This document shows, in pieces, positions 10,469-32,565 of a DNA stretch of 37,600 nucleotides. The stretch is from Pseudomonadota bacterium. GTDB taxonomy: Bacteria; Desulfobacterota; Desulfobacteria; Desulfobacterales; JBDRRP01. Below the pieces are notes generated by a model. It searched no databases. It saw only the letters and a program-made list of their open reading frames with translations, and was not told where the DNA came from. The position numbers were made by a program, and so were the translations under genes. Location of the stretch: positions 1 through 37,600 of the forward strand of contig JBDRRP010000101.1 of assembly GCA_043825735.1 (NCBI GenBank). The letters are read 5' to 3'. How positions within the stretch are numbered: position 1 is the stretch's first letter; each line of letters opens with the position of its first letter.

Positions 10469-10514
10469 CACGGTAGTATCGATTCAACGACAGGGGCCCA
10501 ACGGCAAGATACGA

Positions 10515-10762
10515 TTTGAACCACGAAGAGCACGAAGGGCACGAAGGGCACGAAGGAAAATCAGGACCACAACGCTCACACAGGCAATGTCGTAACACGA
10601 GGGCAATAGAAACCAATGGGATCGCGCAGGGCCGCTGAGGCGCAGAGAAAAACATTTGCAACCGTCCGCGCGGCGCTTTCGCCGTGCCTTCTCCGCGTCT
10701 CTGCGCCTCAGCGCGAAAACGGTTTTGCTTTTCTTCGTGATCTTCGTGTGCTTCGTGGTTTA
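10515..10762. repeat. Nested inverted-triad element (outer CACGAAG x4 / CTTCGTG x3, inner CGCAGAG/CTCTGCG)
   Basis: Outer arms at 10522-10555 and 10734-10758. Inner arms at 10622-10648 and 10690-10716. Confidence 0.88.
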
Positions 10763-10809
10763 TCACAGCCGTTATGCCGCCATGACCGACTCTCAATAGG
10801 GAACGCACC

Positions 10810-12929: not shown

Positions 12930-12931
12930 GC

Positions 12932-13963
12932 ATGAGGAGCGCCCCACCCAGCGACGCGGGCAAAACGAACGCACCGGGACGCGATGAGATGCTGCTGACG
13001 GTCTCCGAACTGAAGGTGTCATTTGGCGCCGGCCGCACAGCCGCACGCGCCGTGGATGGCGTCGATTTCCACATCGCCCCCAATGAAACCGTTTGCATCG
13101 TGGGTGAATCGGGCTGCGGAAAGACGGTCACGGCGTTGAGTATCCTGGGCCTCATCCCCTGCCCGCCCGCCCGCATCAGCGCCGATGCCGTACGCTTCAA
13201 GGGCCAGAATCTACTCACGGCTTCCCCGGAAGCGCTCCGGCACATCCGCGGCAACCAGATCGCCATGGTATTTCAGGAGCCTTTGTCCTCGCTCAACCCC
13301 GTATTCACCGTGGAAGATCAGATCGGCGAGGCCATGCGCATCCACGGCAAACACCCGTCCGGAGAAATCCGCGAGGCGTGCGAGAACCTGCTGGCCCAGG
13401 TAGGCATCGCCGACCCTGCCGATCGCCTGGCGGCGTTTCCCCATCAGCTCAGCGGCGGTCAGCGCCAGCGGGTGATGATCGCCATGGCACTGTCCTGCGA
13501 CCCGGATCTCATCATCGCCGACGAGCCCACCACCGCCCTGGATGTCACGGTTCAGGCCCAGATCATTCGACTGTTCAAGGACATCCAGGCACGCCGCCGG
13601 ATGGCCATCCAGTATATCACCCACGATCTGGGCGTCGTGGCCGCCATCGCCAACCGGGTCTATGTCATGTACGCGGGTATTATCGTGGAGGAAGGCGGCA
13701 CCGCCGCCATTTTCAAAATGCCGGGGCATCCCTACACCCGTGCCCTGCTGGCCGCACTGCCGAACCGGAAAAAACGGGGTCAGCGTCTTTATGCCATACC
13801 CGGTTCGGTGCCCAACCCTTCGAACAAACCCCCCGGCTGCCCGTTTCATCCACGATGTCCGGCAGCCGAGACGTCCTGCCGACACACCGTCCCCGACATG
13901 TGCGACTATGGCGGCGGGCACCGGGCACGCTGTCCGGTTGTGTTTGAAAAGGACGGGAAATGA
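12932..13963 (+). CDS. Peptide ABC transporter ATP-binding protein (DppD-like)
   Basis: [33 protein letters not shown]. Start trimmed to ATG 12932. Confidence 0.94.
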
Positions 13964-14961
13964 TGAACCGGCAATCCGCCATAGCGCCGGACGCGCTCAT
14001 TCTCGAGGTGACTGACCTTCGCAAGGCCTTCCCGGTACGTTCGGGATTCCTCCAACGGTTAACCGGCAGCGTCTCCGCCGTGGATGGTGTTTCGTTTGCC
14101 ATCACCCGTGGGCAGACGCTCGGCCTGGTGGGTGAAAGCGGTTGCGGAAAATCCACCGTGGCGCGGTTGATCCTGCGCCTGCTATCGCCCGACAGCGGCA
14201 TCATCCGGTTCAACGGCCACGATATCAGCCGGTTGTCCCAGCGGGCGCTCAAACCCCTCCGGCGACAAATCCAGATCATCTTTCAAGATCCCTATGGATC
14301 GCTCAACCCGCGCATGAGCATCGGGTGGTCCATCGCTGAAGGTCTGCGTACCATCGGGATCACCGAGGCCGCCGCCCAGCGCAGCCGGGTGGCCATGCTG
14401 CTGGAGATGGTCGGCCTGCCGCCGGCCTACCAAAACCGCTACCCTCACGAGTTCAGCGGGGGGCAGCGGCAGCGCATCGGCATCGCCAGGGCCCTGAGCG
14501 TCTCGCCGTCCCTTCTGGTCTGCGATGAGCCCATCTCTGCCCTGGATGTTTCCATACAGGCCCAGATCATCAATCTGCTCAAGGATCTGCAGGATCAATT
14601 GGGCCTGAGCTACCTGTTCATCTCACACGATCTGAATGTCGTCAGCTATTTGTGCACTCACGTCTGCGTTATGAACAGCGGGCAGATCGTGGAGTCCGCG
14701 CCGGCCGAGGCCCTTTTCGAGCACCCGTGCCACCCCTATACCCGGGCACTTTTATCGGCCATTCCGGATGCCGATGCATCCCTGAAGATGCGGGATGCAG
14801 CGCCGGCGCGCCCCCGTCGGGACGATCCGCCGCCGGGTGCCTGTGTCTATGCCGATGAGTGTCCCGCCGCTGAACCCCGCTGCCTTGCCGGGGCGCCGCT
14901 GATCACCGTGGCCCCGGGTCACCAGGTGCGGTGCTGGCAAGGAGCGGATGTGCTGAAATGA
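13960..14961 (+). CDS. Peptide ABC transporter ATP-binding protein (DppF-like)
   Basis: GESGCGKST, YPHEFSGGQRQRIGIARAL, CDEPISALDVS. Confidence 0.94.
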   Translation: MMNRQSAIAPDALILEVTDLRKAFPVRSGFLQRLTGSVSAVDGVSFAITRGQTLGLVGESGCGKSTVARLILRLLSPDSGIIRFNGHDISRLSQRALKPLRRQIQIIFQDPYGSLNPRMSIGWSIAEGLRTIGITEAAAQRSRVAMLLEMVGLPPAYQNRYPHEFSGGQRQRIGIARALSVSPSLLVCDEPISALDVSIQAQIINLLKDLQDQLGLSYLFISHDLNVVSYLCTHVCVMNSGQIVESAPAEALFEHPCHPYTRALLSAIPDADASLKMRDAAPARPRRDDPPPGACVYADECPAAEPRCLAGAPLITVAPGHQVRCWQGADVLK

Positions 14962-16578: not shown

Positions 16579-16583
16579 CCTGT

Positions 16584-16709
16584 GACGGAGGTCAGAAGTC
16601 AGAGGTCAGAGGTCAGAGGTCAGAGGTCAGAGGTCAGAAGTCAGAAGTCAGAAGTCAGAGGACAGAGGACAGAGGTCAGAAGTCAGAAGTCAGAGGACAG
16701 AGGACAGAA
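16584..16709 (+). repeat. Heptamer tandem G(T/A)CAGA(G/A) x18
   Basis: 126 bp, starting 5 bp after the stop codon. The first unit is degenerate. Confidence 0.95.
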
Positions 16710-18106: not shown

Positions 18107-18384
18107 CCGCCCGGAAGCGGCGCGTCACATGCGCCTTGCGGCGCGTCAGTTGTTGGCTGCGCCAACGTCAGTTGCCCCTTCGGGGCGTCAATGGCGTCTT
18201 CGACGCGTCACATGCGCCTGCCGGCGCGTCAGTTGTTGGCTGCGCCAACGTCAATTGTGCTTCGGCACGTCAATTACAGCGCAGCGCCATGACGACGAAG
18301 CCTATTGACGTCGGCGGAGCCGACAATTGACGGTCGCGCAGCGACCATATGACGGCGAAGCCTATTGACGCCGGCGAAGCCGGC
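18107..18384. repeat. Bidirectional array of GTCA-type 7-bp linkers alternating with variable mini-hairpins
   Basis: 8 GTCANNN linkers (18124-18275) followed by 5 NNNTGAC linkers (18288-18369), separated by 9-15-bp palindromes. Confidence 0.88.
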
Positions 18385-18399
18385 CAGTGGAGAACCCCC

Positions 18400-19008
18400 T
18401 TGGAACCTCTTGAAATAGAAGTCAAATTCCACACCCCTGCCGCTGAGACAATTCGCCAGCAGATTATTGCCATCGGCGCTGCAGGCCACGGCAGGGTCTT
18501 CGAATCAAATGCGACCTACGACGACGGAACACAGTCGCTCAAAGACCGCGGCATGCTGCTGCGCCTGCGGCGGACGCAAGACCTAAACACCCTGACACTG
18601 AAAGCGCCGGCAGCAACGGTCAGCAACGAATACAAGATCATGAAAGAGCTGGAATCGGCGATATCGGACCCCGGCGCCATCCACAACATTCTGGAAACAC
18701 TGGGCTTTCGGATCTGGCGCCGGTACGAAAAGTGGCGGGAGACCTTCCGCTTGGACGATGTGACATTTTGTCTCGACACCATGCCGTTTGGCGATTTCAT
18801 CGAGTTGGAAGGACCGGGAGGGCGCATTCGCGAAATGGCAGACCAACTGGGATTCAACTGGTCGCGCCGCATCCTGATCAATTATTACGGTATTTTTGAT
18901 ATCATCCGCGCGCAGCTCGCCCTGCCCTTCAACGACATCGCCTTTGATCGATTTCAGGGCATCGATGTGGACCTGTCGCGCTATCGCACCATGATGGAGG
19001 CCGGCTGA
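18400..19008 (+). CDS. CYTH-domain protein (class IV adenylate cyclase-like)
   Basis: EIEVKF, LRLRR, LTLK, YEKWRETF, FIELE. TTG start with GGAGA RBS. Confidence 0.88.
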   Translation: MEPLEIEVKFHTPAAETIRQQIIAIGAAGHGRVFESNATYDDGTQSLKDRGMLLRLRRTQDLNTLTLKAPAATVSNEYKIMKELESAISDPGAIHNILETLGFRIWRRYEKWRETFRLDDVTFCLDTMPFGDFIELEGPGGRIREMADQLGFNWSRRILINYYGIFDIIRAQLALPFNDIAFDRFQGIDVDLSRYRTMMEAG

Positions 19009-19169
19009 TGGCGCCGGCGCGCAAACCGCTACCCCAAAAAACCGAGCCCGCTGATGCACAATCATCGAGTTGACTCTAACCGCAGCGCCGAATGAGAACC
19101 ACGAAGAACACGAAGTGCTCGAAGCACACCCTGAAAACCATTCAATGGTCCGGGTAACGTCAAATCACC

Positions 19170-19928
19170 ATGATCCGCATCATGACCCTCAATTTGCGTT
19201 TCGGACTCGCCAAAGACGGACCCGACGGGTGGCACCACCGTCAGCAGGCGTATCCGTCGCTCTTTTCATCGTTTCCGTCTGATCTTTACTGTTTTCAGGA
19301 GGCCAACGACTTTCAGCTCAGGGCCTTGAGCGCATGGCTGCCAGATCACCGCCCCATCGGTATCCGCCGTCCGTCCCCGCCCTTCTGGCAGCACACCCCC
19401 ATATTCTTTCCGAAAACATGGCAACTGCTGGCCGCAGAACACATCTTTCTCAGCGCGACCCCTCATGTGCCCAGCCGGCAGCGCAGCAGCAGATGGCCTC
19501 GCCAGTGCACTATCGGCGAGTTCAGAGTCGGCACGCACCGCCTTCTCTGCGTCAACACCCATTTTGACTTTGCACCCGAAACCCAGCGGGAAAGTGCACG
19601 CATCATCGGCGAACGCCTTCAGCGATATCCGCAGAGCGTGCCCTGTATCGTCGTTGGAGATTTCAATGCCCGGCCGGGTGGACGCTGCCACCGGCTCATG
19701 ACCGGCGGCGGGTGGGTGCCGGGGCGACAATTTCAATCCGCTTTTGGTGCGTCATCACCGGGCTCTTTCCATGGTTTCAGCGGCGCGGCGGCGGAAAGGC
19801 ACATCGACTGGATTCTTTATGACGGCCCGGTGCGGGTCGTCTCGGCCGCTGCGGTCACACAGTCCTTTGAAGGAATCTACCCCTCGGACCACTTCCCCAT
19901 GATAGCCACGCTGGAGCAGGTCGAATAA
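19170..19928 (+). CDS. Endonuclease/exonuclease/phosphatase (EEP) family protein
   Basis: MTLNLR, FQE, NTHFD, GDFN, IDWIL, SDHFP. Confidence 0.92.
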   Translation: MIRIMTLNLRFGLAKDGPDGWHHRQQAYPSLFSSFPSDLYCFQEANDFQLRALSAWLPDHRPIGIRRPSPPFWQHTPIFFPKTWQLLAAEHIFLSATPHVPSRQRSSRWPRQCTIGEFRVGTHRLLCVNTHFDFAPETQRESARIIGERLQRYPQSVPCIVVGDFNARPGGRCHRLMTGGGWVPGRQFQSAFGASSPGSFHGFSGAAAERHIDWILYDGPVRVVSAAAVTQSFEGIYPSDHFPMIATLEQVE

Positions 19929-20158: not shown

Positions 20159-20488
20159 TCAGCTCAAGCTGGTCACGTCGGCATTGAGCACGCCGCCCGC
20201 TTCGACCATGAAATATTTACAGGTGACTTTACCGGAACAATTGCCGGTGGCCAGTATGATCAGCACCTGGGTCGCCACTACCTCCCCTTCAAAATAGCCG
20301 CCGATGGTCATGCGGCTGACTTTCACGTCGGCGAATACGCGTCCTTCCCGCGCGATAACGAGGGTCTCTGCCTCCACGGTGCCACGCACTTCACCTTTCA
20401 CCACCAGGCGCCCCTTGGTACTCAGTTTCCCGTCGACACTCAGTTGCTCATCGATGATGGAAACATCCATTTCCGGTTTCTGACTCAC
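20159..20488 (-). CDS. Bactofilin (polymer-forming cytoskeletal protein, CcmA-like)
   Basis: SIIDEQLSVDGKL..GRLVVKGEVRGTV..GRVFADV..IGGYFEGEV..GGVLNA beta-helix repeats. Confidence 0.88.
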   Translation of the reverse strand: MSQKPEMDVSIIDEQLSVDGKLSTKGRLVVKGEVRGTVEAETLVIAREGRVFADVKVSRMTIGGYFEGEVVATQVLIILATGNCSGKVTCKYFMVEAGGVLNADVTSLS

Positions 20489-20491
20489 GAC

Positions 20492-22333
20492 TCAATTCCT
20501 CGCAAATGACAAGTGCACACTGCCCAGTTCCATACCGCCGCGCCAAACCGTCATCAGGTAGTCCCGGGCGGTCAAACGGCCCGGATCCACCGAAAGTCGA
20601 ATAGGCTCGTTAATGAGCATCCGCCGGTCGGCGTCTCCCGGAGCGCTGACCAACACGCTGACGCCGTCATTGCCGGGGATGTTGGTCCGAACATCCACCA
20701 GTTGTATCGATTGCCCCGGATCCAGGGTGGTGACAGAACCCGGGAAAAGGGGTATGTGACGGCCATCGCCGTTGCCGAGGAGAATGTATTCCAGCCGAGG
20801 GGTCATCACCTCGATAAACAATCTTCCCAGCTGATCGTCCCCGCTGGTGGTAAGCACCTGGAAGCGGGTGCCTTCAGGGTTGAGCGCATAGCGCTGCCAC
20901 AGATCGCTGCCGCTGTCGATGACAAATCCCCTGTCTTCACCGGTGTTGGTCCGACGGTTGCCCACGAATCCTTTGACATTGACCACCACCTGGGCCGAAT
21001 CGTGGGTGCTGGTGAAGACATCCACGATTTCGAATCGATCGCCTTTGATCAGATGCAGGGTGCCTTCGTTGGGAATCAGCTGGGCCTCACCGTTACGGCG
21101 CACTTTGTATACCAGCTCCGGCCAGGAGCCATCCGGCACCCGTCGCCGGATGCCGTTGCCGCCATCGACCGCGGCGGATAGCCCTGGTGTCACCAGGAGT
21201 TTGATGCCCCCGCAGGGATAGTTGTCCTTGCGAACGACGATCTCCGTAGTCGCGTTGACCACCACCGGGCGCCGCAGGTCGTTCATGGCGCCGAGACCGA
21301 GAATGTCTGCCGACATCCCGCGCTCGTAATTGGCTTCGATATGGGACACCGTCACCGTATCGTTGGCGGCGATATTCAATTGCTGGTGATTTTTCACCAC
21401 CACCGGCAGTGCGTCGTTGACAGCCACAACGAGATAGTCCAGCCTCGGCGTTTCCAGTCTGAGCCCCGGTGTTTCGGGCACCACATCGAAGGCCTGCATA
21501 AAGGCGTTGACCGCCAGATTGTGCTGATAAACCTTGTCCTCCAGAGACAGTGATTTGCTCGTTTCAATCCCGAACGCCGGTATGCCGCAGACGGTCAAGG
21601 CATAGTAGGTGGCCGATTTGCGCTGTTCCTTATGCCGGGAATCCGATTGTGTGGTCTGGTGATTGTTGAAGTGAAAATGGTGCTCCGGATCGGAGATGCG
21701 TCGGTTGATGGTCTCGCACACACGCCGGGCGATGTCCCCCAGGGCAATGCGGCGCCCGGTGTTCGGGTCGGTGTAAACGTCTTCGTCGGCGATAATTGAC
21801 TGGCCGAATTTTTGGGGATTGCGTTCTTCATTCACCCATGTTCCGGCATAAAATCCCGAACCATCGTGAAGATTGAGCAGGCAGTCGCTGTCGGCGATCA
21901 GGCCCTTGAGGATATCGACCACCTCGGCTTCGTAGATCCCCGGTGTGGCGGTTGAAAACTGCCGGTTCATATCGACATAGACCCCACGGCGATTTTCGAT
22001 GATGGACCGCCAGTTGGCTCGCGGCACGACGATGAGGCTGCCCTTCTCCAGGCTGATATCCGCATAGTGGTCCACGGAAAGAAACCCGCCCGGCTCATCG
22101 CCTTGAATGCCGCCGATGAGCATGATAGTGGTCCCTGCCTGCTTGCCATTGATGCGGTATATGTTGAGTTCGTGGTCGGAGCCTTCGAAATAGACGGTGT
22201 GGACACGCCCCTGGGCTTGCGCCGGAGATGCGCTTGCCCAGCCCGCCAGCAATCCGAATATCAGGGCCGCCAGGGCCGCTGGCCACCGCGGCACGGCCCC
22301 CTTTCTCTTCATGTGCTCAGATCTCGCCATCAT
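20492..22333 (-). CDS. Csd4/Pgp1-like M14/M99 metallocarboxypeptidase with long C-terminal extension
   Basis: Signal peptide, GGIQGDEPGG, DMNRQF, LNLHDGSGFY, NPQKFGQSII, FGIETSK. Confidence 0.85.
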   Translation of the reverse strand: MMARSEHMKRKGAVPRWPAALAALIFGLLAGWASASPAQAQGRVHTVYFEGSDHELNIYRINGKQAGTTIMLIGGIQGDEPGGFLSVDHYADISLEKGSLIVVPRANWRSIIENRRGVYVDMNRQFSTATPGIYEAEVVDILKGLIADSDCLLNLHDGSGFYAGTWVNEERNPQKFGQSIIADEDVYTDPNTGRRIALGDIARRVCETINRRISDPEHHFHFNNHQTTQSDSRHKEQRKSATYYALTVCGIPAFGIETSKSLSLEDKVYQHNLAVNAFMQAFDVVPETPGLRLETPRLDYLVVAVNDALPVVVKNHQQLNIAANDTVTVSHIEANYERGMSADILGLGAMNDLRRPVVVNATTEIVVRKDNYPCGGIKLLVTPGLSAAVDGGNGIRRRVPDGSWPELVYKVRRNGEAQLIPNEGTLHLIKGDRFEIVDVFTSTHDSAQVVVNVKGFVGNRRTNTGEDRGFVIDSGSDLWQRYALNPEGTRFQVLTTSGDDQLGRLFIEVMTPRLEYILLGNGDGRHIPLFPGSVTTLDPGQSIQLVDVRTNIPGNDGVSVLVSAPGDADRRMLINEPIRLSVDPGRLTARDYLMTVWRGGMELGSVHLSFARN

Positions 22334-23259
22334 TCTCCGATATCCTGGTCTGGGGGGGGGCCCTGCGCCACCCGGATGTCGAAAGACTTCTCCATGAGCA
22401 ACTCTCCCTGAAGCGAATAAACCAGAACGGCGGCGTTGTTGAACGCCTCGGTAGCCGCATCGTAGGGGGTGCTGAATTTAACGATGTTGAATCGCGAAAT
22501 AGAAAAATACCGTCCGTTTCGCACCTGGCTCGGACGGCCTTCTTCCAGGGGCACTGCGGGCATGGGCAGCCACCGCACTGTCGCGGCAGCTTTCTCCTTG
22601 AGTATGACGAACGTTCTGCCGGTGATCGCCCCCTGGTCGGCATCGACTTTTTTCAACATGAACTGGGCATGCATCATATGGTTGACAACATCATGGGTCA
22701 CCCGCAGGTCTTCCACATCGACCCCCAGGGCCTCGGTGGGGGTCGGTACCACCGCTTGAGGAACCGGTGCCGGCGCCGGAGTCTTCACCGATCCGGGAGA
22801 ACCCGTTGCGGCGACCTTGCCCGGCGTTGCCGGCACCACCTTGGCCATTTTGGGCGCCTTTTCTTCACTGGCTTGAGCCGCCGGTACCTGCGGCGCTTCC
22901 GGTGCCGGCGCTTCGGAGGCGAGGGCCTTGCGAGAGGCGGACACCACCATCCGGGCCATCATCAAATCTTTTTCCGCCTTCACCGCTGCCAGCTGCTCTC
23001 GCACTGTCAAGAGCTCCCGCGCAAGACGACGATTTTCATGTCGGGGGCTCCTGGACGCAAACCATAACGTGCCGGCAGCGGCCAACGCTGCCGCCAGCAG
23101 CGTAAAATAAAACACCGCCCACGCTTTGAAACGGCGGAAAGTGATTACTTCGCCATTGTCACCCACAAACAGCAGCGTCCACCGTCTATTTCGCTTGGGG
23201 GTGGGCGTATTGCCGATACGGGTTACGTCCCGCTGTATATCTCTCGGAATATCTTCCAT
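22330..23259 (-). CDS. Hypothetical single-pass membrane protein (TM, coiled coil, Pro/Ala linker, beta-rich C-terminal domain)
   Basis: 309-aa ORF that overlaps both neighbouring genes. Confidence 0.75.
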   Translation of the reverse strand: MEDIPRDIQRDVTRIGNTPTPKRNRRWTLLFVGDNGEVITFRRFKAWAVFYFTLLAAALAAAGTLWFASRSPRHENRRLARELLTVREQLAAVKAEKDLMMARMVVSASRKALASEAPAPEAPQVPAAQASEEKAPKMAKVVPATPGKVAATGSPGSVKTPAPAPVPQAVVPTPTEALGVDVEDLRVTHDVVNHMMHAQFMLKKVDADQGAITGRTFVILKEKAAATVRWLPMPAVPLEEGRPSQVRNGRYFSISRFNIVKFSTPYDAATEAFNNAAVLVYSLQGELLMEKSFDIRVAQGPPPDQDIGE

Positions 23260-24569
23260 TGATGTTTTTCCATTCGAAGGTGAAGGGTTTTACGCCCCTC
23301 AGATCGATACCGATTGGAAGCATATCGCTGCGTAAAAGTTACCACCGCCGTATCACCGGCCACCCGGTAGGAGATATCTTTTGCTGAGACCTGAATGCTG
23401 GAGTAGGTTTCATTGAGCGACTTTTTATAGTCCAGCCATTGGCGTTTGGTCATCTTCTTTGACATAAACGTCTCGGCATAGCAGTCGCCGTAGGCGGCGA
23501 TGTCCTGCGCCGACCAGGCCGCCAGCCATTGTTCTACAAAAGCAGCGAGACGGGCCTGAGCGCCGTCTGACTGCTTGAACCAACGGGTCGCGCTGATCAG
23601 AGGGATGGCGCCATCGTCGTCGGCGCGATCTGCGTCAATGCGATGGTAGTCGTCCCCGACGATGCGCATGCCCCCATCGACCTCCCGGATATAGAGCGTA
23701 CGCCACCCGGCCGGCCGCTGATGCGGCCCCACCTGCAGGGTCTGCCGAAAGGCTGACACAAGCGTGCCCTGATGCCGGTAAAGGGATACGCTGTCGAGTA
23801 GAATAGCAACATCTCCGATGCTGGCGGCGGTTCGTCTGAAGTCCTGCCAATCGCGCCACCAGTCGATCGGAGGAAGATAATCCGGATCATACAGTGCCAG
23901 ATACTGGTGATAGGAGCCGGAGGTCAAGCGCTGCCCCCATGTTTCAACAAAATCCAATAGCCGGGCGCGAAGGGCCGAGGCACCTTCGGAATCCACATAG
24001 TGCAGGGTTTCAGCCAGGAGAATGGGAGTGCGTTCCAGATCTATGAAAGCGGCCAGGTTGTCTATGTCGGCATTGTTCATGGCCACGCAACCGTTGGAAT
24101 CGTAGGGAACCAATGGACGGTCCGTACCATGCAGCCAGATGGCAAACCCGTCTTTGCCTTCCTGGCGGTCGATCACATTCGGATAGTTCAGCGGATAGGC
24201 CCGGGTTCCGTATATGGGGGCAAGCTCGCCGTCGTTGTGATGATCGGTAAAAAAATAGACGCCTTCGGGGGTTTTCATGTCGCCCGAGACCCATTTGTCG
24301 CCATTGGCCTTGCCGGTGGAACACGGATATCCGGCGATTTTCTGGAATGCGCCGTCGTAGCGGTACACCGACAATGTCTGGGTGGACTTTTCCACGATAA
24401 TGGCGTACTCCGGCGCCGCACCGGGCGCAGTACTCATAGAGATGAGGATGTCCGGCACCGGCGCTGCCCAGAGGCCCCCCGAAATACTTAAAAGAATGCC
24501 CAAAAGGGCAAGTACCACGCGGCCTGTTTCCGGGAGAAACCGTGTCGGCGGCGCAGCCGATGGTTTCAT
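23223..24569 (-). CDS. YkuD L,D-transpeptidase/carboxypeptidase with two NTF2-like domains (Csd6/Pgp2-like)
   Basis: GDMKTPEGVY, LNYPN, IWLHG..SNGCVAM, then W.AAWS.QDI..Y..CY..F ... FTQRYAS..Y.S.G.KTL ... WKIFRE. Start trimmed to ATG 24569. Confidence 0.87.
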   Translation of the reverse strand: MKPSAAPPTRFLPETGRVVLALLGILLSISGGLWAAPVPDILISMSTAPGAAPEYAIIVEKSTQTLSVYRYDGAFQKIAGYPCSTGKANGDKWVSGDMKTPEGVYFFTDHHNDGELAPIYGTRAYPLNYPNVIDRQEGKDGFAIWLHGTDRPLVPYDSNGCVAMNNADIDNLAAFIDLERTPILLAETLHYVDSEGASALRARLLDFVETWGQRLTSGSYHQYLALYDPDYLPPIDWWRDWQDFRRTAASIGDVAILLDSVSLYRHQGTLVSAFRQTLQVGPHQRPAGWRTLYIREVDGGMRIVGDDYHRIDADRADDDGAIPLISATRWFKQSDGAQARLAAFVEQWLAAWSAQDIAAYGDCYAETFMSKKMTKRQWLDYKKSLNETYSSIQVSAKDISYRVAGDTAVVTFTQRYASNRYRSEGRKTLHLRMEKHQWKIFREIYSGT

Positions 24570-24618
24570 CGTGCATAGACCTTTATCGTGTTGTCTCATC
24601 ACTGGAGCGGCGCTCTTT

Positions 24619-25659
24619 TCAAAACATCCGTTGTTGTATGGAAAATCCAAGATGCCGGTAGGCGGTCTCGGTGGCTTTTCGACCCGAAGATGTCCGCACA
24701 ACCAGTCCGGTTTTCAGCAGATAGGGTTCCACCACATCGACCAGGGTGTCGGTTTCTTCCTGAAGCGTGGCCGCAATGGCCTCGATGCCCACCGGTCCGC
24801 CTTTGTAAAATTCGATGATGGTGCTCAGATATCTGCGGTCCAAAGGCGTCAGTCCCCGCTCGTCGACCCCTTCCAGCGCCAGGGCCTCCGCTACCACTTG
24901 CCGCGTCACCTGTCCGTCGGAGCGCACCTGGGCAAAATCCCTCACCCGCTTGAGCAGCCGGTTGACGATGCGCGGCGTCCCTCGTGAGCGCTTTGCCAGC
25001 TCTTCGGCGCCGCCGGCATCGATGGGGATCGCCAACAATTCAGCGGAACGACGGGTGATGAGCTGCAAATCTTCGATGCTGTAGAAATCGAGCGTCCGGA
25101 AGATGCCGAAACGATCCCTGAGCGGCGCCGTCAGCAGACCGACTCTAGTGGTAGCCCCCACCAGCGTGAAGCGCTTCAGTCGGAAGCGATGGCTCCGGGC
25201 ATGCATGCCTTTATCAAAGACAAAGTCCACTGCAAAATCTTCCATGGCCGGATATAAAAACTCTTCGACGGTTTTGGGTGTGCGGTGAATTTCGTCGATA
25301 AACAGGATGTCGCCTTCTTCTAGATGGGTAAGAATACCGAGAAGATCGCCCCCCTTTTCAAGTACCGGGCCCGAAGAAACGGTAAGGGCACTGCCCATCT
25401 CGTTGGCGATGATATGCGACAAGGTGGTTTTTCCCAACCCCGGTGGTCCGTGAAAAAGGATGTGCTCCAGCGGTTCGCTTCGGATACGGGCGGCATCGAT
25501 GGCGATCTTCAGCGTTTCGACCACGTCCGGCTGGCCAACGTAATCGGCCAGCAACTGGGGACGCAGGGAAAGCAGTTCCGGTTCGGCGTCTTCCACCGTA
25601 GGCTGCCCGGCAAGAATGCCCGGAGATGAAGAGCGATGGGTGAGGATGTCGTCTGTCAT
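24619..25659 (-). CDS. ruvB: Holliday junction branch migration helicase RuvB
   Basis: [44 protein letters not shown]. Confidence 0.98.
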
Positions 25660-26273
25660 TCGGAAGTCTTTTTGCGGTAGATAGCGTCAAACAGCTGCTC
25701 GGCGGTGATGATACCGGGCTGCCGCATCAGGGCGTCGGCGATTAGCTGGCGCGCCTCGGCAGGCCGGTGTCCCAACTGCTCGACGAGAACGGTCTGAACG
25801 AGCTGATGCTGAGCGTCGGGCAGCGCGATTGGCGCAAGGGCCTGCCCAGGCAGCGCCATGAACCGATCGACTTTTCCCTCCAGCGTTGCCACAATCTTTT
25901 GAGCCGTGCGCTTGCCGATCCCGCTCAATGTGGCGAGCATGCCGACGTCCTTGTTTTCAATGGCCGCGGCGACCTCGGCCACGGGCCGCGTCAAGGCCTT
26001 GACCGCCTTCATGGGACCGATGGCCTCGACGGTGATAAACAGCTGAAAGAATGCCTTGTCCACCTCATCCCGAAAACCGATCAGCACCGGTTTTGGTTGA
26101 CGCTCGGTCTGATGGTAATAAATATACAGAGACACGCTGTCTCCGGCGGTTTTAGTGGCCAGCTCGGCACGCACCGAAACGGGCAGCATCACCTCATAGC
26201 CCACCTGGCCCGCCAGCAGAATGAGCCGTTCGTCATCCATGGCGAGGATGCTGCCTTCAAGATAGGCGATCAT
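25656..26273 (-). CDS. ruvA: Holliday junction binding protein RuvA
   Basis: [34 protein letters not shown]. Confidence 0.95.
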
Positions 26274-26791
26274 CGCAGGGGTCCCCCGGATCGTTGGCAG
26301 ATCCTCGCGGTGGGTGCGGGATGTTGCCGGTACAAACCGATGAGGGCCAAACCCAGCGCATCAGCCGCATGGGCGGGCCGCACCGGCTCAGGAGCACCGA
26401 GGAGCCGACGCACGTTTCGCTCCAGTTGGGCCTTGTCGGCGTTGCCGTTGCCGGTCAGCACCTGTTTGGCCTCCCGCACCGCCACTTCGAGCATGGGGAT
26501 CTGCGACTGGCTGCCGGCCAGAAGAATAACCCCACAGACCTTGCCCAAGGTGATGCCGGAGCGCGGGTAGACATCCAAAGAAAATACATCTTCAATCACC
26601 ATCAGATCCGGGTGCTCGTCTTCGATAAGGCTGCACAAGCGGCTGTAGATGCGGGCCAGCCGACTGCCCGTATCGGTGTTGCTTCGGGTGTGGATACAGC
26701 CGTAAGAGTATCCCTGTGGTCGCATGCCGCTGCCCCACACGAGCCCCACTCCGGTCGAGGCCAGTCCGGGATCGATACCCAGCACTTTCAT
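26270..26791 (-). CDS. ruvC: Crossover junction endodeoxyribonuclease RuvC
   Basis: VLGIDPGL..TG, IEDVF, K..LTGNGNADKAQ, AADAL. Start trimmed to ATG 26791. Confidence 0.96.
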   Translation of the reverse strand: MKVLGIDPGLASTGVGLVWGSGMRPQGYSYGCIHTRSNTDTGSRLARIYSRLCSLIEDEHPDLMVIEDVFSLDVYPRSGITLGKVCGVILLAGSQSQIPMLEVAVREAKQVLTGNGNADKAQLERNVRRLLGAPEPVRPAHAADALGLALIGLYRQHPAPTARICQRSGGPLR

Positions 26792-26865
26792 GAAGCCGCC
26801 TCGGTGGCATGGTGGTTCAGTGTCATCCCCTCTCCCCGCCGCCGTCTCTGGGGATTTGCTTATTC

Positions 26866-27088
26866 GTGCCCATCCACAAATGGCATCTTTGCCTTTGAAA
26901 CCCTGCGCTTCGCTGAGCAGCCAGCCCCCGGCGGCGTACTCGCTCATTTGCAATCCTCGATCCGCCGCGGCGGACCTGCGGTTGTCGGCCAAAGCCCTGT
27001 GGCGGACTCGGGCCATCCGCCGTCGCCAAAACAACGGCTTTGGCGGACAGGTGCCGGGAACCAAAATCTAACACCTGTGGACGGACAC
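26866..27088 (+). mobile_element. Hairpin element, copy 3 (expanded, 223 bp)
   Basis: Same termini GTGCCCATCCACAAATGGCATCTTT ... GAACCAAAATCTA..TGGACGGACAC. Abuts the cpoB stop codon. Confidence 0.78.
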
Positions 27089-27951
27089 TACTTGAGCCGA
27101 TCGAGTATTTTTTTCGCGATGGCCGCTTCGTTGGTGTCCGGATATTTTTTCACCAGTTCAGAGAGAACCAGCCGGGCGTTGGTGGCATCCTTCAACTGAC
27201 TGAAGGCCAACCCCTGTTTCAGCAGCGCCGCCGGCACCTTGTTACCCTTAGGATAATTCTTGATCACCTTGTGGTATTCGAGAATGGCCTTTTCGTACCA
27301 TTTCTCCCGGTAAAACGTCTCGCCGATCCAAAACTGCGCGTTGTCGGCCTGGGGGGCATCAGGGTATGCCTTGATCAGGGCGTCAAAGCCCTGACGAGCG
27401 GTTTCAAGGCTGCCATTGTCATAAGCCTGCTTGGCCAGATCATACATGTCTTTTGCAGAAAGAGATGTTTTTTGTTTCTTCTCGTCGGCATCCGCCACCG
27501 GCGGAATGCCCTTGCCGCCAGTATCGGTTTCTGGCTCCAGGTTGAGATACTCCTCGATGCGCAGGGTCTGCGCCCGAAGCGCCGCCACCGCCTCGCTCTG
27601 TTTTGCGTCCGCGCTCTGCCTGGCCCGTTCGGCCCCTTCCAATCCTTTCAGTTTCTCATTGAAACGGTGGTCCAGCTCGTCGATACTGCCGCGCAAGCGT
27701 GCCATTTCCTCGTCGATCCGGGCCAAAGATGCGCTAAGTCGTGCGGTCTGCTGGCGCATTTCCTGATTGCGCGCTGCCATGTCTTTTTCCAGATCATTGA
27801 TCCGCGACTCAGTGGTACGACTCGACTGCTGTGCATTTTGCGCCACCGCCTGCATGCGGTCGTCCAGGGTGTGCACATCCTGTTGTGAAGCACACCCGTA
27901 AATAGAAGCCGCCAGCATCGCAGCGACAACGACGTATCGGGCGTCTTTCAT
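27088..27951 (-). CDS. cpoB: Tol-Pal system protein CpoB/YbgF
   Basis: Lipobox-like YGC, coiled coil, TPR (ADNAQFWIGE, YPKGNKVPAALLKQG). Lies downstream of pal. Confidence 0.92.
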   Translation of the reverse strand: MKDARYVVVAAMLAASIYGCASQQDVHTLDDRMQAVAQNAQQSSRTTESRINDLEKDMAARNQEMRQQTARLSASLARIDEEMARLRGSIDELDHRFNEKLKGLEGAERARQSADAKQSEAVAALRAQTLRIEEYLNLEPETDTGGKGIPPVADADEKKQKTSLSAKDMYDLAKQAYDNGSLETARQGFDALIKAYPDAPQADNAQFWIGETFYREKWYEKAILEYHKVIKNYPKGNKVPAALLKQGLAFSQLKDATNARLVLSELVKKYPDTNEAAIAKKILDRLK

Positions 27952-27984
27952 GGGCTCTCACCCCCTGTCAGAAACATCGGATGG

Positions 27985-28018
27985 AAAAAAAACTTGCCCG
28001 CCGAAACGGCGGGCAAGT
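27985..28018 (-). terminator. pal terminator
   Basis: ACTTGCCCGCCG-AAA-CGGCGGGCAAGT stem with a poly-T tail on the minus strand. Confidence 0.85.
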
Positions 28019-28082
28019 GGTCTTCTGACAAATCGTCACCATCGGCTCGGCGCTAGACGGTAACGATGCACGAGTGTGCGGC

Positions 28083-28682
28083 TTACTGGATGACGAAAAC
28101 GTCTCGTCGGTTCTTAGCCCAGGCCTCTTCGTTATTGCCCGGATCGGCCGGACGCTCTTCACCGTAGCTGATCGTGGTAATCCGGGAGGCGGAAATCCCC
28201 AGATCCACGATAAAACTCATGGCCGCATTGGCACGACGCTCGCCTAGCGCAAGGTTGTATTCGGCAGTGCCTCGTTCGTCGCAATGGCCTTCAATGACCA
28301 CCGAAGCCATGGCATTGGCGCGGAGCCATTCTGCCTTGCGAACGAGAACGTCCTGAGCCATGGGCGTCAACTGAGCGCTGTCGAAATCAAAATAGATATT
28401 CTCGTTTTGAAATGCCATCCGCCGCATTTCCACTTCCCGAGCCATCGCCTCATCCTTGATTGTCTGCATGGTGGCGGCTTGTTGCGCCTCGGTCATCGCG
28501 GCCTGTTCTTTGGCCATCTCCTGCTGCTTTGCAGCCGAGGCAGCGTCTTCGGCCGCCTGCTGCTGTGTCGCCGCCGCGCTTGATTCAGCTGTTACGACCT
28601 GTTTCTTCGCGCAGCTAACGGTGAACAGCAGCCCCGGGATCACCACCAATAAAGCTATGTGTATCCACAACTTCTTCCGCAT
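28083..28682 (-). CDS. pal: Peptidoglycan-associated lipoprotein
   Basis: Lipobox VSC, IYFDFDS, IEGHCDERGTAEYNLALGERRA, SYGEERP, KNRR. Confidence 0.98.
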   Translation of the reverse strand: MRKKLWIHIALLVVIPGLLFTVSCAKKQVVTAESSAAATQQQAAEDAASAAKQQEMAKEQAAMTEAQQAATMQTIKDEAMAREVEMRRMAFQNENIYFDFDSAQLTPMAQDVLVRKAEWLRANAMASVVIEGHCDERGTAEYNLALGERRANAAMSFIVDLGISASRITTISYGEERPADPGNNEEAWAKNRRDVFVIQ

Positions 28683-28694
28683 GTTTCCTCCTTT

Positions 28695-30032
28695 TCAAAA
28701 ACCCGATAACGCTTTAGATTTCATACTGCTTGGGGACCATTCGGGGTCGGACTGCTGCCCCGGAAGAGCCAGCAACTGCCGCTGATCAGTACCAAATGCG
28801 GTCATGACGTATATTCGGGAAGGGCCTTCGCGGGTGGAACTGAAGGCGATCAGGCTGCCATCGGGTGACCATGAAGGCCCCTCGTTGTCTCCAGCCTCGC
28901 GGGTCAACTGCATCCCCCCCTGGCCATCGACCCCAATGACCCGGATGTTCAACTGGTTGTCGTCCATTGCGGAGTAAGCGATCTTGTCTCCCCGCGGCGA
29001 CCAGGACGGCTGAGTATTGTAGCGGCCGTCATAGGTCAGACGACGCACCTGACCACTGTCCATTTCCATGATAAAGATCTGAGGGGTGCCTGCCCTATCT
29101 GACACGAATGCCATTTTGTTGCCGTCAGGCGACCAAGCCGGATGGACGTCAATTCCCCCGGTATGGGTCAATCTTTTAATAATTTTCCCAGTTCCGGTCA
29201 ATAGGTAAATTTCTTGGTCTCCCGAAAAGCTTAACGTTGCTGCAAGCTCAAATCGTCCCGGCACCCAGGCAGGCTTTACATTGATGCCTTTTTCGGCGAC
29301 CACGTATCCCTGGGGTTGTGTGAGATTTTTGATGTAAAGATCGGGCCGACCTCGGGTATAGGCCGTATAGGCGATCCACTGCCGGTCGCTGGACCATGCC
29401 GGAAACAAGGTGATGGCGTTGTTGTGCGTCAACTGACGGGCATCGGCGCCGTCAAAATCGCAGGTGTAGATTTCCTTGTTACCGGTACCGGTGGATACAA
29501 ATGCGATCTGGGTATCGAAATAGCCGCTGCTGCCGGTCAGCGCCAGGAGCACTTCGCTGCAAAACCGACGGATGATTTTCTTCAAATCTCCCACCTGGGC
29601 GGTGTACTTCTTGCCGACGATGAGCTTTTCTTTGAAGGTGTCAAACAGTCGCAACTCGACCTCGACAACGCCCTCCCTCGTGAGCATGCTGCCGGTGATC
29701 ATCAACTCGGCGCCGATCCCGGTCCAGTTGGCAAAGTCGATATTGGGGCCGATCACCGGCGGATCGGCCGGATCGTAGAGATACGCCGCGGGATCAAGAA
29801 TTTTAAAGTAACCCGTAAAGTCAAGGCTTTGGGAAAGAATCCGGGCAGCATTGCCAAAGGCCTCCGTGGCGGCGGCATCCGCGGAGTAGACCTTGAACTG
29901 GGGAATGGCCAGAGGGATTTTTTTGAGAAACGGGTTGGTGATGTCAATATATTCATAATCCGCCATGGCGGCGGGAACCGCCACCAACCATAAAATGACG
30001 CACAAGATGGCAATCTCAAACAATCTTTTCAT
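28695..30032 (-). CDS. tolB: Tol-Pal beta-propeller protein TolB
   Basis: TQIAFV, repeated PAWSPDG/PSWSP motifs, FVSDRAGTPQIF. Confidence 0.96.
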   Translation of the reverse strand: MKRLFEIAILCVILWLVAVPAAMADYEYIDITNPFLKKIPLAIPQFKVYSADAAATEAFGNAARILSQSLDFTGYFKILDPAAYLYDPADPPVIGPNIDFANWTGIGAELMITGSMLTREGVVEVELRLFDTFKEKLIVGKKYTAQVGDLKKIIRRFCSEVLLALTGSSGYFDTQIAFVSTGTGNKEIYTCDFDGADARQLTHNNAITLFPAWSSDRQWIAYTAYTRGRPDLYIKNLTQPQGYVVAEKGINVKPAWVPGRFELAATLSFSGDQEIYLLTGTGKIIKRLTHTGGIDVHPAWSPDGNKMAFVSDRAGTPQIFIMEMDSGQVRRLTYDGRYNTQPSWSPRGDKIAYSAMDDNQLNIRVIGVDGQGGMQLTREAGDNEGPSWSPDGSLIAFSSTREGPSRIYVMTAFGTDQRQLLALPGQQSDPEWSPSSMKSKALSGF

Positions 30033-30143
30033 CGAAAGCTTCCGTATGGTGTGTCATGACCCCGGCAACGCCGCCCCGGGCCATGTTTTCCGCCTGGAAC
30101 CCTGCGCGCAGGGTTTCCAAGTCAAAGATGCCGCTTATCGCCA

Positions 30144-30288
30144 GTGGCCATTCACAGGTGGTAGGTTTAGGTTCCTGGCAAGGCTCGAGCATTTTTGAAA
30201 CCGGAGGCGTAGCTCAGGCTACGTCGAGGATTTCAAAAAGTGCGAGTACGCCGCCAGGGGCCGGAAGATGCCGCCTGTGGATGGCCAC
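30144..30288 (-). mobile_element. Hairpin element, copy 4 (diverged, inverted)
   Basis: Its reverse complement aligns end to end with copies 1 and 2. It starts at the G of the tolA TAG. Confidence 0.82.
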
Positions 30289-31160
30289 TACCGGATTCCC
30301 TGTGGGGTAAACCGCAACCCCACCGTAACTGCCGGACGAATCACGCCATTGGGGTGCGGTGGCAAGGGAACGGACTTGATAATGGCTCTTCGGGCCGATT
30401 CGTCCAGGTATCCATTGCCGCTGCGCTTATCGAACCAGATATCGCTGACGGTGCCGTCCGGCATCACATCGAATGCGATTTCGGTAACCAGATCATTGGC
30501 GCCACCGGCCAACGAGTCGGAAAACGCCCAGTTCTTCTGAATGATGAAAGCGATCTCCACCCGGTAAATATCAATCAGCTCTAGCGCCCTGGCATCCTGC
30601 TCCCGGACGGCGCCATCCACCTTCAGTTGACTGACGGCGTCCTGGGAATCGGGCTCAGGGGCCGGCTGGTCCTTTACCTGTTCCTGGAGCCGTTCGATGG
30701 CAGCATCGATCTGATCGGGCCGGTTTTCTTCCACGTCCTTTTCCAGCCGATCAATGGCCTGGTCCATCACTTTTGCCGATTGGAATGTTTTTCGTTTCAG
30801 GGAAGTCTTTTCAATAGCAGCCGGCTCCGGGGCCGACTGCCGCTTCGCAGTGGAAAGGCTCACCGCATCCGGCGGCGGTGCTTTTGGCGCCGCGCGCCTG
30901 GGGCTCACTCTGGCCTGTGCTGACTTTCTGGAAGCCGCCGGCAGCTCGGCCTTCACCGATGCCACGGGCAGGGCCACCATGCGCACATGAATGGCAGGCG
31001 GTGGAGACGAGCGGCGTGGCGCCAGGGCCGGCGTGTAAAGCATGAACGCCAGCGCTATCAGGTGAAACAATCCCGACGCCATGAAAGGGATGATCACTTC
31101 ACGACGTTCCACTGTGCCTCCAAGGGCGGGTCCGGATATCGCGGCCATATTGAATCCCAT
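30288..31160 (-). CDS. tolA: TolA/TonB-family energy transducer
   Basis: TM with S..FH motif, C-terminal SGNGYLDESARRAI..SVPLP. Lies between tolR and tolB. Confidence 0.82.
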   Translation of the reverse strand: MGFNMAAISGPALGGTVERREVIIPFMASGLFHLIALAFMLYTPALAPRRSSPPPAIHVRMVALPVASVKAELPAASRKSAQARVSPRRAAPKAPPPDAVSLSTAKRQSAPEPAAIEKTSLKRKTFQSAKVMDQAIDRLEKDVEENRPDQIDAAIERLQEQVKDQPAPEPDSQDAVSQLKVDGAVREQDARALELIDIYRVEIAFIIQKNWAFSDSLAGGANDLVTEIAFDVMPDGTVSDIWFDKRSGNGYLDESARRAIIKSVPLPPHPNGVIRPAVTVGLRFTPQGIR

Positions 31161-31167
31161 CGACCCG

Positions 31168-31584
31168 TTATTTCTTTTCCTGTTCTTCCACAGGAATCGT
31201 CACCATGCCCAGTTTCTCCACCCCGGCGTCTTTGATGGCCGCCATGACACGCACGACGTTTCCGTATGGAATTTGCTTGTCAGCGCGCAGATAAACCTCA
31301 CGATCGCTTCGCCCCTTGAGAATGCTGTCGAGCTTCTGTTTTAGAGAGTCGAGCGCCACCGGATAGGTGTTGATATATACCTGGCCGTCAGAATCGATGG
31401 TAATGATAAGATTTTCTTTTTGGGTCGGCAGCGCCTCGGCCGTCGTTTGCGGCAGCGCCACGTCCACCCCTTGAACCATCATGGGCGCCGTCACCATGAA
31501 AATGATGAGCAGCACCAGCATCACGTCAACAAACGGCGTCACGTTAATGTCGCTCATGAGATGGTCGTTATTTCCGGCGATCAT
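31168..31584 (-). CDS. tolR: TolR
   Basis: DINVTPFVDVMLVLLIIFMVTAP, LRADKQIPYG. Confidence 0.95.
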   Translation of the reverse strand: MIAGNNDHLMSDINVTPFVDVMLVLLIIFMVTAPMMVQGVDVALPQTTAEALPTQKENLIITIDSDGQVYINTYPVALDSLKQKLDSILKGRSDREVYLRADKQIPYGNVVRVMAAIKDAGVEKLGMVTIPVEEQEKK

Positions 31585-32306
31585 GCTCTCCTCCTGGCGG
31601 TTGCGAGAATGTCACGTTCCACGATGTTGAGAAAGTCGGCTGAAAAATTCTGTAAATCGGCTTCCATCATCCGGATGCGGTTCATAAAATGGTTAAAGGC
31701 GATGACCGCAGGTATCGCCGCCGCCAAGCCGGCTGCCGTGGCCACCAGCGCTTCGGAAATACCCGGCGCCACGACGGCCAGACTGGCCGACCCACGCAAA
31801 CCGATCCCATGAAAGGAATTCATGATCCCCCAGACCGTTCCGAAAAGACCGATAAACGGCGTGGTGTTGCCCGTGGTGGCCAGAAACGGCACCATTTGCG
31901 CCATACGGGTCATCTCGGAATTGATTGCCCGGCGCATGGCTCGCTTGAGATTGTCAATGCCTGCCAATCGGGTGCCCATCGCCGGGGTGTTGTCCGGAGC
32001 CTGATCCCCGGCCCGGGGGGCGGAGCGCTGGAGCTTGTTAAGCTCCACATAGCCCATGCGGAATATCCTGGCAGTGGGACTGCCGACCAGTTGTTTGGCC
32101 TTGGCATAGGCCTCTGAGAGATCGCGGCTTTTCCAAAAATGGTCGGTGAACTCAGCAGTTTCACGATACGCACGCCGCAGGTAGCGGAACTTGATGATGA
32201 TTATCGCCCAGGAAGTGATTGAAAAAAAGAGCAGCACCAGCAGCACCATCTGCACCACCAGCCCTGCGCTGCTGATCATCTGGATAAGATCAATCTCTGC
32301 GGTCAT
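31581..32306 (-). CDS. tolQ: TolQ
   Basis: FLATTGNTTPFIGLFGTVWGIMNSF, VAPGISEALVATAAGL. Start trimmed to ATG 32306. Confidence 0.95.
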   Translation of the reverse strand: MTAEIDLIQMISSAGLVVQMVLLVLLFFSITSWAIIIIKFRYLRRAYRETAEFTDHFWKSRDLSEAYAKAKQLVGSPTARIFRMGYVELNKLQRSAPRAGDQAPDNTPAMGTRLAGIDNLKRAMRRAINSEMTRMAQMVPFLATTGNTTPFIGLFGTVWGIMNSFHGIGLRGSASLAVVAPGISEALVATAAGLAAAIPAVIAFNHFMNRIRMMEADLQNFSADFLNIVERDILATARRRA

Positions 32307-32408
32307 CGGCACGATCTCCGTAAAAGTGGTTGAACCAATATAGTGCGCGCATCGCAAGCGCTGGCTGTATTTAAAAATTCCTAAGCATTTAAATATTTTA
32401 AGCGTGGT

Positions 32409-32437
32409 ACTGTATCCGAAGGCGGCATTCTTGTCAA
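32409..32437 (-). promoter_or_regulatory. Putative sigma70 promoter of the tol-pal operon
   Basis: TTGACA-17 bp-TACAGT on the minus strand. Confidence 0.65.
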
Positions 32438-32565
32438 GGTGACGCCAACGGCATGGCGCCGCCCTCAAAGAACGGTTATCGCGGCCGCCTGTCAGCCGCT
32501 TTTGGATTGAAAAAACCGCTGCGGACGACTACAGATGGCTTCTGATATCATTGACCGGAGGCGTC

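Follow-up and report, generated by a model that had tools for sequence, protein, structure and literature searches.

In a 37,600-nucleotide stretch of contig JBDRRP010000101.1 (assembly GCA_043825735.1; hereafter the window) four tightly coupled genes on the minus strand encode two enzymes of peptidoglycan carboxypeptidase families, a bitopic membrane protein and a bactofilin. A first-pass annotation made from the letters had described them as a cell-shape operon of an apparent member of the Desulfobacterota. The open reading frames and all their junctions were reproduced on recomputation: genes 1 and 2 overlap by 37 base pairs (bp), genes 2 and 3 by 4 bp (1 bp if gene 3 begins at its second ATG, 22330), and genes 3 and 4 are separated by 3 bp. 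The proposed lineage agrees with the best named relatives, which are mostly Desulfobacterales records (also Syntrophales). The locus is a real, conserved yet modular peptidoglycan-editing locus, in which known enzyme families are grouped around an undescribed family of candidate adaptors. The features, in the positions of the window, are:

23223..24569, minus strand: gene 1, 448 amino acids (aa) from the ATG at 24569; secreted YkuD enzyme of the LD-carboxypeptidase type (Bd1075/Csd6/Pgp2 family) with two tandem NTF2-like domains.
22330..23259, minus strand: gene 2, 309 aa; unnamed bitopic candidate adaptor.
23125..23184, minus strand: cytoplasmic beta-hairpin of gene 2 (approximately residues 26-45), resembling the N-terminal end of LmdC-type M23 proteins; candidate bactofilin-binding element.
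22366..22722, minus strand: periplasmic beta-sandwich of gene 2 (residues 180-298) with a conserved GxxFxIxxF motif.
20492..22333, minus strand: gene 3, 613 aa; secreted DL-carboxypeptidase of the M99 (Csd4/Pgp1) family, a paralog of the operon type with an additional beta domain at the C-terminus (approximately residues 511-613).
20159..20488, minus strand: gene 4, 109 aa, GTG start; minimal bactofilin that lacks both a signal peptide and an MF-type N-terminus for membrane targeting.

The protein encoded by gene 1, for which an alternative in-frame ATG lies at 24599, has a hydrophobic N-terminus and matches both YkuD (PF03734, 65.5 bits) and Cds6_C (PF24125, 77.8 bits) over the cut-off; the NCBIfam family DpaA/LdtF was ruled out (36 bits vs a cut-off of 365). 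The first-pass view of a Csd6/Pgp2-like enzyme holds for the family and for the combination of YkuD with NTF2-like domains, but among the structures in the PDB gene 1 is nearer to Bd1075 (7O21, E 5.9e-41) than to Pgp2 (6XJ6, 6.6e-19) or Csd6 (4XZZ, 1.9e-15); a further match is 8IKR (1.9e-6). Residue conservation was counted over 79 aligned homologues, drawn from loci carrying genes 1-3. LD-carboxypeptidases are recognised by a His-Gly/Ala-Cys triad with Ala or Val at Cys+2, where most transpeptidases have Arg (PMC8938487; published work is cited here and below from the parts of each source that were covered). In gene 1 the triad H147, G148 and C161 is kept in all 79 homologues, and position 163 (Cys+2) is Ala in 38, Val in 31, Thr in 10 and Arg in none. 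Two further residues of Csd6, mapped by hand from a printed alignment, are also recovered: Tyr133 as Y120 (Y in 70, F in 9) and Trp158 as W145 (W in 70, Y in 5, F in 4). The NTF2 domain is duplicated (hhalign probability 99.8), whereas Bd1075, Csd6 and Pgp2 have one. The pocket of the second copy is well kept (Y360 in 74, K382 in 77, Y416 in 76, K427 in 79 and E443 in 78 homologues), the reference residues being Pgp2 Y233, K257, K307 and E324 and Bd1075 Y274, with the Pgp2 numbering mapped by eye (PMC8038945). Gene 1 heads an operon, in contrast to the monocistronic bd1075 (PMC8938487). From its sequence the enzyme is predicted to trim tetrapeptides to tripeptides. The genome encodes a second YkuD plus Cds6_C protein on contig C27 (L005:1219-2574), near what looks by eye like a lytic transglycosylase gene.

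Gene 3 matches Peptidase_M99 (PF17033) with 144 bits, over the cut-off, and contains the motifs GGIQGDEPGG and LHDGSGFY, the two that had been reported earlier (the latter as LHDGxGFY). Its assignment to the metallocarboxypeptidases of the Csd4/Pgp1 family stands, as the M99 match, the catalytic residues and the predicted fold agree. Csd4 has a QxxE...H metal motif and the catalytic residues Glu222, Arg86, Asn93 and Arg94 (PMC4220969); gene 3 keeps the equivalents of these and of Thr208, and Q77, E80, H156, R116, N123, R124 and E257 are each invariant in the 79 homologues. N452 and E466 correspond, by eye, to Asn382 and Glu396, which bind calcium in Csd4. The sequence match to Csd4 (4Q6M, E 9.2e-31) is confined to the catalytic domain. 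In the AlphaFold model (pLDDT, the predicted local distance difference test score, 82.4) residues 55-510 align with residues 19-438 of Csd4 4WCK (Z 29.8, root-mean-square deviation (rmsd) 12.2, 355 aligned), and Foldseek pairs the model with Csd4 at E 3.6e-28, so that all three Csd4 domains (carboxypeptidase, beta-barrel and Ig-like) appear to be present in the model. Gene 3 differs from Csd4 in having no match to PF17129, in the substitutions His126 to Asn and Met203 to Gln, and in the extra C-terminal domain, with which a search of the Atlas gave no usable match. It is predicted, again from sequence, to trim tripeptides to dipeptides. We regard the activities of genes 1 and 3, as assigned from their families and catalytic residues, as highly probable.

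Gene 3 is not, however, the closest relative of Csd4 in this genome. A second M99 gene, on contig C158 (C158:17150-17833; L086:5518-7236, minus strand), is much closer, matching Csd4 39-438 at E 1.9e-84 vs 9.2e-31 for gene 3, and it has the PF17129 domain; no homologues of genes 1, 2 or 4 were detected near it. The two types separate in a tree of 71 M99 catalytic domains, in which the stand-alone copies form one clade (10 rows, support 100/99) and gene 3 falls in an operon clade of 52 rows (95/93); long branches were flagged in this tree, which contains no Helicobacter sequence and for which no root was inferred. Close orthology of gene 3 to Csd4 was not found, the closer paralog lying in the separate clade, and judged by sequence the C158 protein is a better candidate than gene 3 for a Csd4-like shape role. 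It follows that the Desulfobacterota hold two distinct Csd4-like lineages, and the presence of Csd4 alone should not be taken as a sign of a curved shape. The C158 gene is followed by a gene for an SH3_3-domain protein (L086:4479-5345).

The fourth gene had been called a bactofilin, and both Pfam (PF04519, 74.7 bits, cut-off 27.9) and the PDB (2N3D, E 1.8e-4, and 6RIA) bear this out; it is one of three bactofilins in the genome. Bactofilins can be targeted to the membrane by an N-terminal sequence of the MFSK type, and the commonest motif in the Thermodesulfobacteriota also differs from it (PMC12448750). None of 73 operon bactofilins has M/V-F within the 12 residues that precede the first strand (three copies begin M/V-W); the MFSK-type anchor is therefore missing, and as far as sequence can tell gene 4 is without the usual membrane anchor. 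Fusions of M99 to bactofilin (P0039, P0040, P0042 and P0052) were considered as evidence of partnership and rejected, being near-identical, derived from one record of 80 and keeping the ribosome-binding site and GTG of the bactofilin at the junction. That record, labelled Olavius algarvensis Delta 4 symbiont, contains the read-through fusion at L010:9968-12157 with the bactofilin start signals retained.

For gene 2 neither Pfam nor NCBIfam gives a family over the cut-off. The protein family is large: a threshold of E<=0.001 yields 1048 representatives, and one of 1e-10 yields 773. In the AlphaFold model (mean pLDDT 82.7) two hairpin strands (residues 29-32 and 38-41) are followed by a single helix (44-115) that comprises the membrane segment and a coiled coil, a low-confidence linker with 45% Pro/Ala, and the beta-sandwich (180-298). 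The N-terminal part resembles that of LmdC-type M23 proteins, and in Hyphomonas and Rhodospirillum the hairpin of LmdC binds bactofilin (PMC10945521); the comparison was made with the Desulfobacterota M23 proteins and not with Hyphomonas LmdC itself. A profile of the gene 2 N-terminus, built without M23 sequences, ranked two M23 proteins of the genome second and fourth (E 4.1e-5 and 0.044), and hhalign matched the gene 2 N-terminus to 23 Desulfobacterota M23 N-termini with probability 96.5 (E 7e-10). A profile of the hairpin alone scored 15.7, above all 100 of 100 column shuffles (maximum 8.7); as controls, TolA, TolR, Pal and a signal peptide stayed below 7, and CpoB reached a probability of 79. 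Like LmdC, gene 2 would be bitopic, with a cytoplasmic beta-hairpin, a membrane helix and a coiled coil, and a bactofilin gene lies nearby. Unlike LmdC it has no M23 domain (PF01551 gives no match in gene 2), and the enzymes encoded here are separate secreted carboxypeptidases instead of a tethered endopeptidase. Elsewhere the genome encodes two LmdC-like M23 peptidases (C104:7626-8609, L147; C136:19421-20494, L146) that have the hairpin, the membrane helix and the coiled coil; no bactofilin adjoins them, and they are possible partners of gene 2.

The beta-sandwich of gene 2 has an Ig/FnIII-like fold (Z up to 10.0, with an rmsd of 2.5 over 101 residues), and domains of GH3 beta-glucosidases head the Foldseek list for gene 2. 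In the Atlas it resembles a DUF6776 cluster (template modelling (TM) score 0.71 over 112 residues, between predicted models of a kind of fold that is common) and a cluster of 57 YkuD/Cds6_C proteins that carry such a domain (TM 0.77). No named family is nearer to gene 2 than DUF6776, whether by structure (TM 0.71) or by features, where the score of 0.86 is a lead only. At the level of sequence, PF20567 (DUF6776) matches just 4 of 113 gene 2 homologues, with a best E of 0.0075, and in the phylum it is found over the cut-off in none of 301 genomes, where the matches are all sub-threshold. In the GxxFxIxxF motif it is just the Arg that changes with the cargo, being present in 24/30 loci with gene 3, in 4/18 with gene 1 only, and in 15/27 and 3/14 of those without enzymes.

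Domain fusions connect the beta-sandwich with one type of enzyme. In three genomes (G014, G150 and G280) it is fused to the C-terminus of a gene-1 type enzyme; one gene 2 homologue has a LysM domain in the linker and several have two sandwiches. Such fusions of LD-carboxypeptidase, NTF2 and beta-sandwich were located at L135:6871-8439, L136:7521-9257 and L138:4172-5806, with an MF-type bactofilin upstream. In L200:4039-6378 one 779-residue frame joins a MerR-type helix-turn-helix, a membrane segment, the gene 2 beta-sandwich and TPR repeats. At L202:5036-5833 a bactofilin is fused to a duplicate beta-sandwich right after an intact gene 2; the fusion, found in a single genome, is without a membrane helix and was taken as a local duplication.

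The conservation of the gene order depends on the anchor used to count it. Anchoring on M99 (the best 80 of 461 genome loci, 57 with enough flank) gave all four genes in order in 47 of 57 loci, with gene 1 absent from 7 and gene 2, gene 4 or both from 3. In five genomes scored without gene 1, a weaker YkuD match lies elsewhere in three, a strong match in one and an NTF2 match alone in one. This anchoring overstated conservation, and synteny was recounted with gene 2 as the anchor. In the order of the window gene 2 is matched in 101 of 151 genomes, M99 in 43 and Cds6_C in 59 (E<=1e-10), and all 43 M99-matching genomes fall within the 59 of 151 with Cds6_C. One hundred of the 101 gene 2 loci were fetched; removal of 5 second copies and 11 loci with short flanks left 89, two of which were reassigned (G352, with the bactofilin fused to a duplicate, and G430, where a whole M99 would not fit and none is on the list of matches). 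All four genes are present in 28 of the 89, gene 2 with the bactofilin in 27, genes 1, 2 and 4 in 17, gene 2 alone in 14 and other combinations in 3; in total the bactofilin accompanies gene 2 in 73 loci, gene 1 in 47 and gene 3 in 30. Gene 3 is accompanied by gene 1 in 29 of these 30. The fewest changes on the gene 2 tree are 17 for gene 1, 12 for gene 3 and 6 for the bactofilin. Across the phylum, M99 is matched in 62 of 301 genomes, and 60 loci were fetched for 64 matches: genes 1, 2 and 4 lie near M99 in 19 of these loci, genes 1 and 2 in 14, gene 1 alone in 8 and none of the three in 19.

The claim of a conserved gene order is borne out for the M99-anchored loci, but only 28 of the 89 gene-2-anchored loci hold all four genes. 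A fixed, self-contained four-gene module could not be upheld: the complete set is the minority state, in genome G353 of the same genus genes 1, 2 and 4 occur without an intervening M99 while the stand-alone M99 type is retained, and the genome studied here has the second, Csd4-like M99 on C158. The module looks dispensable, because gene 2 finds no match in several genomes of the order that are near-complete. A five-gene version (YkuD, gene 2, M99, M23, bactofilin) was seen in two genomes of one family (L125:3789-9161 and L129:3545-8983), a row that mirrors the Csd6/Csd5/Csd4/Csd1/CcmA set of H. pylori.

On balance we favour, as somewhat more likely than not, a bactofilin-anchored adaptor that would localise optional, sequential trimming of stem peptides from tetra- to tri- to dipeptide, as far as sequences and models allow. 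Gene 2 would span the inner membrane, with its cytoplasmic hairpin docked on the polymer of the bactofilin gene 4, which has no membrane anchor of its own; by analogy with LmdC this hairpin-bactofilin binding is reasonably likely. The beta-sandwich, carried on the coiled coil and the flexible linker, would hold or position the wall-trimming enzymes at the bactofilin site, although binding of the enzymes by the adaptor is put at slightly less than an even chance. Gene 1 would remove D-Ala4 from stem tetrapeptides and gene 3 would next remove meso-diaminopimelic acid (meso-DAP) from the tripeptides, giving dipeptides that are unable to cross-link, so that local cross-linking would fall. The adaptor-bactofilin pair would be the lasting core, with the peptidases optional and lost mostly in reverse pathway order. 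Such nested loss fits the order of the pathway, because the product of Pgp2 is the substrate of Pgp1 (PMC8038945). The cellular output may be curvature, width, the division site or wall loosening; curvature or helicity is a rather doubtful choice among these. The adaptor reading is supported by the likeness of the hairpin to M23 N-termini, by the gene 2-bactofilin neighbourhood in 73 of 89 loci, by the sandwich-LD-carboxypeptidase fusions in three genomes and by the LysM domain in one linker. The invariant catalytic residues, the gene order at M99-anchored loci, the well-supported operon clade and the nested occurrence of gene 3 with gene 1 also speak for the reading as a whole.

Several observations weigh against this interpretation. 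The membrane and coiled-coil part taken alone gives non-specific similarity, as the CpoB control (probability 79) illustrates, and a reciprocal search of the genome with an M23-derived hidden Markov model at E<0.5 did not return gene 2. The hairpin and the sandwich motif are kept in loci without either enzyme (41/89) or without an adjacent bactofilin (14/89, gene 2 alone), and gene 2 therefore has a job beyond those partners; in the gene-2-only genomes examined, other bactofilins were present in 5 of 5. In 8 of the 60 phylum loci both enzymes occur with no detected gene 2, and a tree-aware independent-pairs test of nested loss was non-significant (3 pairs). In gene 1, finally, Glu110 and His155 of Csd6, which contact the meso-DAP side chain and are required there (PMC4599014), are not kept (S95 and F142; E in 7/79 and H in 6/79 homologues). 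In the printed alignment the active enzyme Bd1075 is also without both equivalents, and because of this the two residues mark the Epsilon subgroup and not activity.

A dedicated machine for curvature or helical shape, in which asymmetric trimming along a bactofilin track would bend the cell as in Helicobacter, Campylobacter and Bdellovibrio, is a rather unlikely alternative. In the sources covered, the characterised relatives (three for gene 1, two for gene 3) all determine cell shape, and one family has the full H. pylori-like row in two genomes. Trp303 of Bd1075, needed for targeting to the outer curve, is W in 68 of the 79 gene 1 homologues, but it is Tyr in the gene 1 of the window. The operon-bearing records have the labels Desulfococcus, Desulfonema, Desulfosudis and Syntrophales, with the looseness usual for labels of metagenome-assembled genomes, and these groups are cocci, filaments or straight rods. 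Against the shape machine also speaks that the link of Csd4 with curved cells was reported for homologues that are >50% similar (PMC3310797), which here is the stand-alone C158 type. A second possibility, to which we assign a low probability, is that gene 2 is a regulator like Api of P. aeruginosa, acting through coiled-coil pairing on a bactofilin-anchored LmdC-type M23 endopeptidase encoded elsewhere, with the carboxypeptidases as co-regulated neighbours and not as cargo. Api (PA0663) is described as having a cytoplasmic tail, a membrane helix, a periplasmic helix and a beta-sandwich, and it is linked to a bactofilin gene (bioRxiv 10.64898/2026.10.09.758143). The topology described for Api in the Api-Baf pair (PA0663-PA0664), ending in an Ig-like beta-sandwich and adjoining a bactofilin, would correspond to that of gene 2, and GH3 matches are common to both, BglX being among the Foldseek matches of Api (bioRxiv 10.64898/2026.10.09.758143). 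The two LmdC-like M23 proteins of the genome and the 27 of 89 loci with gene 2 and bactofilin but neither enzyme would suit such a role. Api is, however, tied to auto-processing of LmdC and not to carboxypeptidases; it was likened to gene 2 by description, and at the level of sequence gene 2 is no member of DUF6776, a family to which Api may belong, given the scarcity of PF20567 matches among homologues and phylum genomes. The fusions seen join the beta-sandwich to an LD-carboxypeptidase and none joins it to M23. A P. aeruginosa hypothetical protein with DUF6776 is also on record (PMC12864544).

The neighbouring genes bear on a third explanation. Directly upstream of gene 1 on the same strand lies, by Pfam:

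24619..32468, minus strand: tolQ-tolR-tolA-tolB-pal-cpoB-ruvC-ruvA-ruvB.

The four genes could accordingly be accessories of cell division or envelope constriction, co-expressed with Tol-Pal/CpoB and acting in septal thinning or peptide recycling, with no polar or lateral role in shape, which we consider improbable. The same-strand run does reach from tolQ through to gene 4, ruvB ending 49 bp ahead of gene 1, and among the 89 loci of the order with at least 3.5 kb upstream, 80 have ruvB upstream of gene 2. Outside the order, however, the module adjoins unrelated genes (purF, purB, parB and sigma-54 regulators), and a terminator-like stem lies between pal and cpoB, though the frequency of such sites is no higher than in shuffles (14 vs 14.3). 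Scans of the locus for promoters and terminators gave results at chance level.

For the adaptor reading, a functional parallel is Csd5 of H. pylori, which binds CcmA and Csd4 (PMC9507126, PMC4220969). It is likewise a non-enzymatic membrane protein of gene-2-type topology that recruits the bactofilin, but it ends in an SH3 domain and is confined to H. pylori and H. acinonychis (PMC3310797). No homology of gene 2 to Csd5 was found, and an SH3 match is absent from gene 2 and its 113 homologues among the families listed. H. pylori has csd2-csd1-ccmA as one operon and csd4, csd5 and csd6 at other loci (PMC3310797). The novelty claimed for this lineage holds in part: homologues of Csd4/Pgp1 in delta- and epsilonproteobacteria have been on record since 2012, the link to shape being made for the closely related ones (PMC3310789, PMC3310797), but no published description of the operon itself or of the adaptor was found in the open-access literature (subscription papers and some homologue supplements lying outside this scope). 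In one supplement of a Csd4 paper the only match to Desulf- was a reference on Desulfovibrionaceae.

Other parts of the window may be mentioned briefly. CYTH and endonuclease/exonuclease/phosphatase genes (18349-19928, plus strand) converge on the operon, a layout seen with rplM in many relatives. Short tandem-like repeats (VRGQRSEVRGQ...) at 16582-16700, between rpsI and an M24 peptidase gene, may be an intergenic repeat. An open reading frame of 535 residues with a low-complexity middle (HC2/extensin-like matches) occupies 6527-8134, upstream of an oligopeptide ABC transporter at 8324-14961.

How cytoplasmic bactofilins position periplasmic peptidoglycan hydrolases is only partly known: the Helicobacter adaptor Csd5 is species-specific, and for Bd1075 the covered parts of PMC8938487 report no targeting partner. 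More broadly, and tentatively, the gene 2 family may consist of enzyme-free adaptors that combine an LmdC-type bactofilin-binding stalk with an Api-like Ig head, and could form with bactofilin an old trans-envelope platform of the Desulfobacterota with exchangeable cargo (LD- and DL-carboxypeptidases, sometimes M23). The turnover of this cargo would tune shape, and Csd5-CcmA of Helicobacter would be a parallel solution with a different adaptor; we think this wider picture more doubtful than not. The locus offers a candidate adaptor family, and a single gene run brings together the two predicted trimming steps and the cytoskeletal element. Its natural variants (the full set, sets without gene 3 or without both enzymes, and fused forms) make the coupling testable in non-pathogens.

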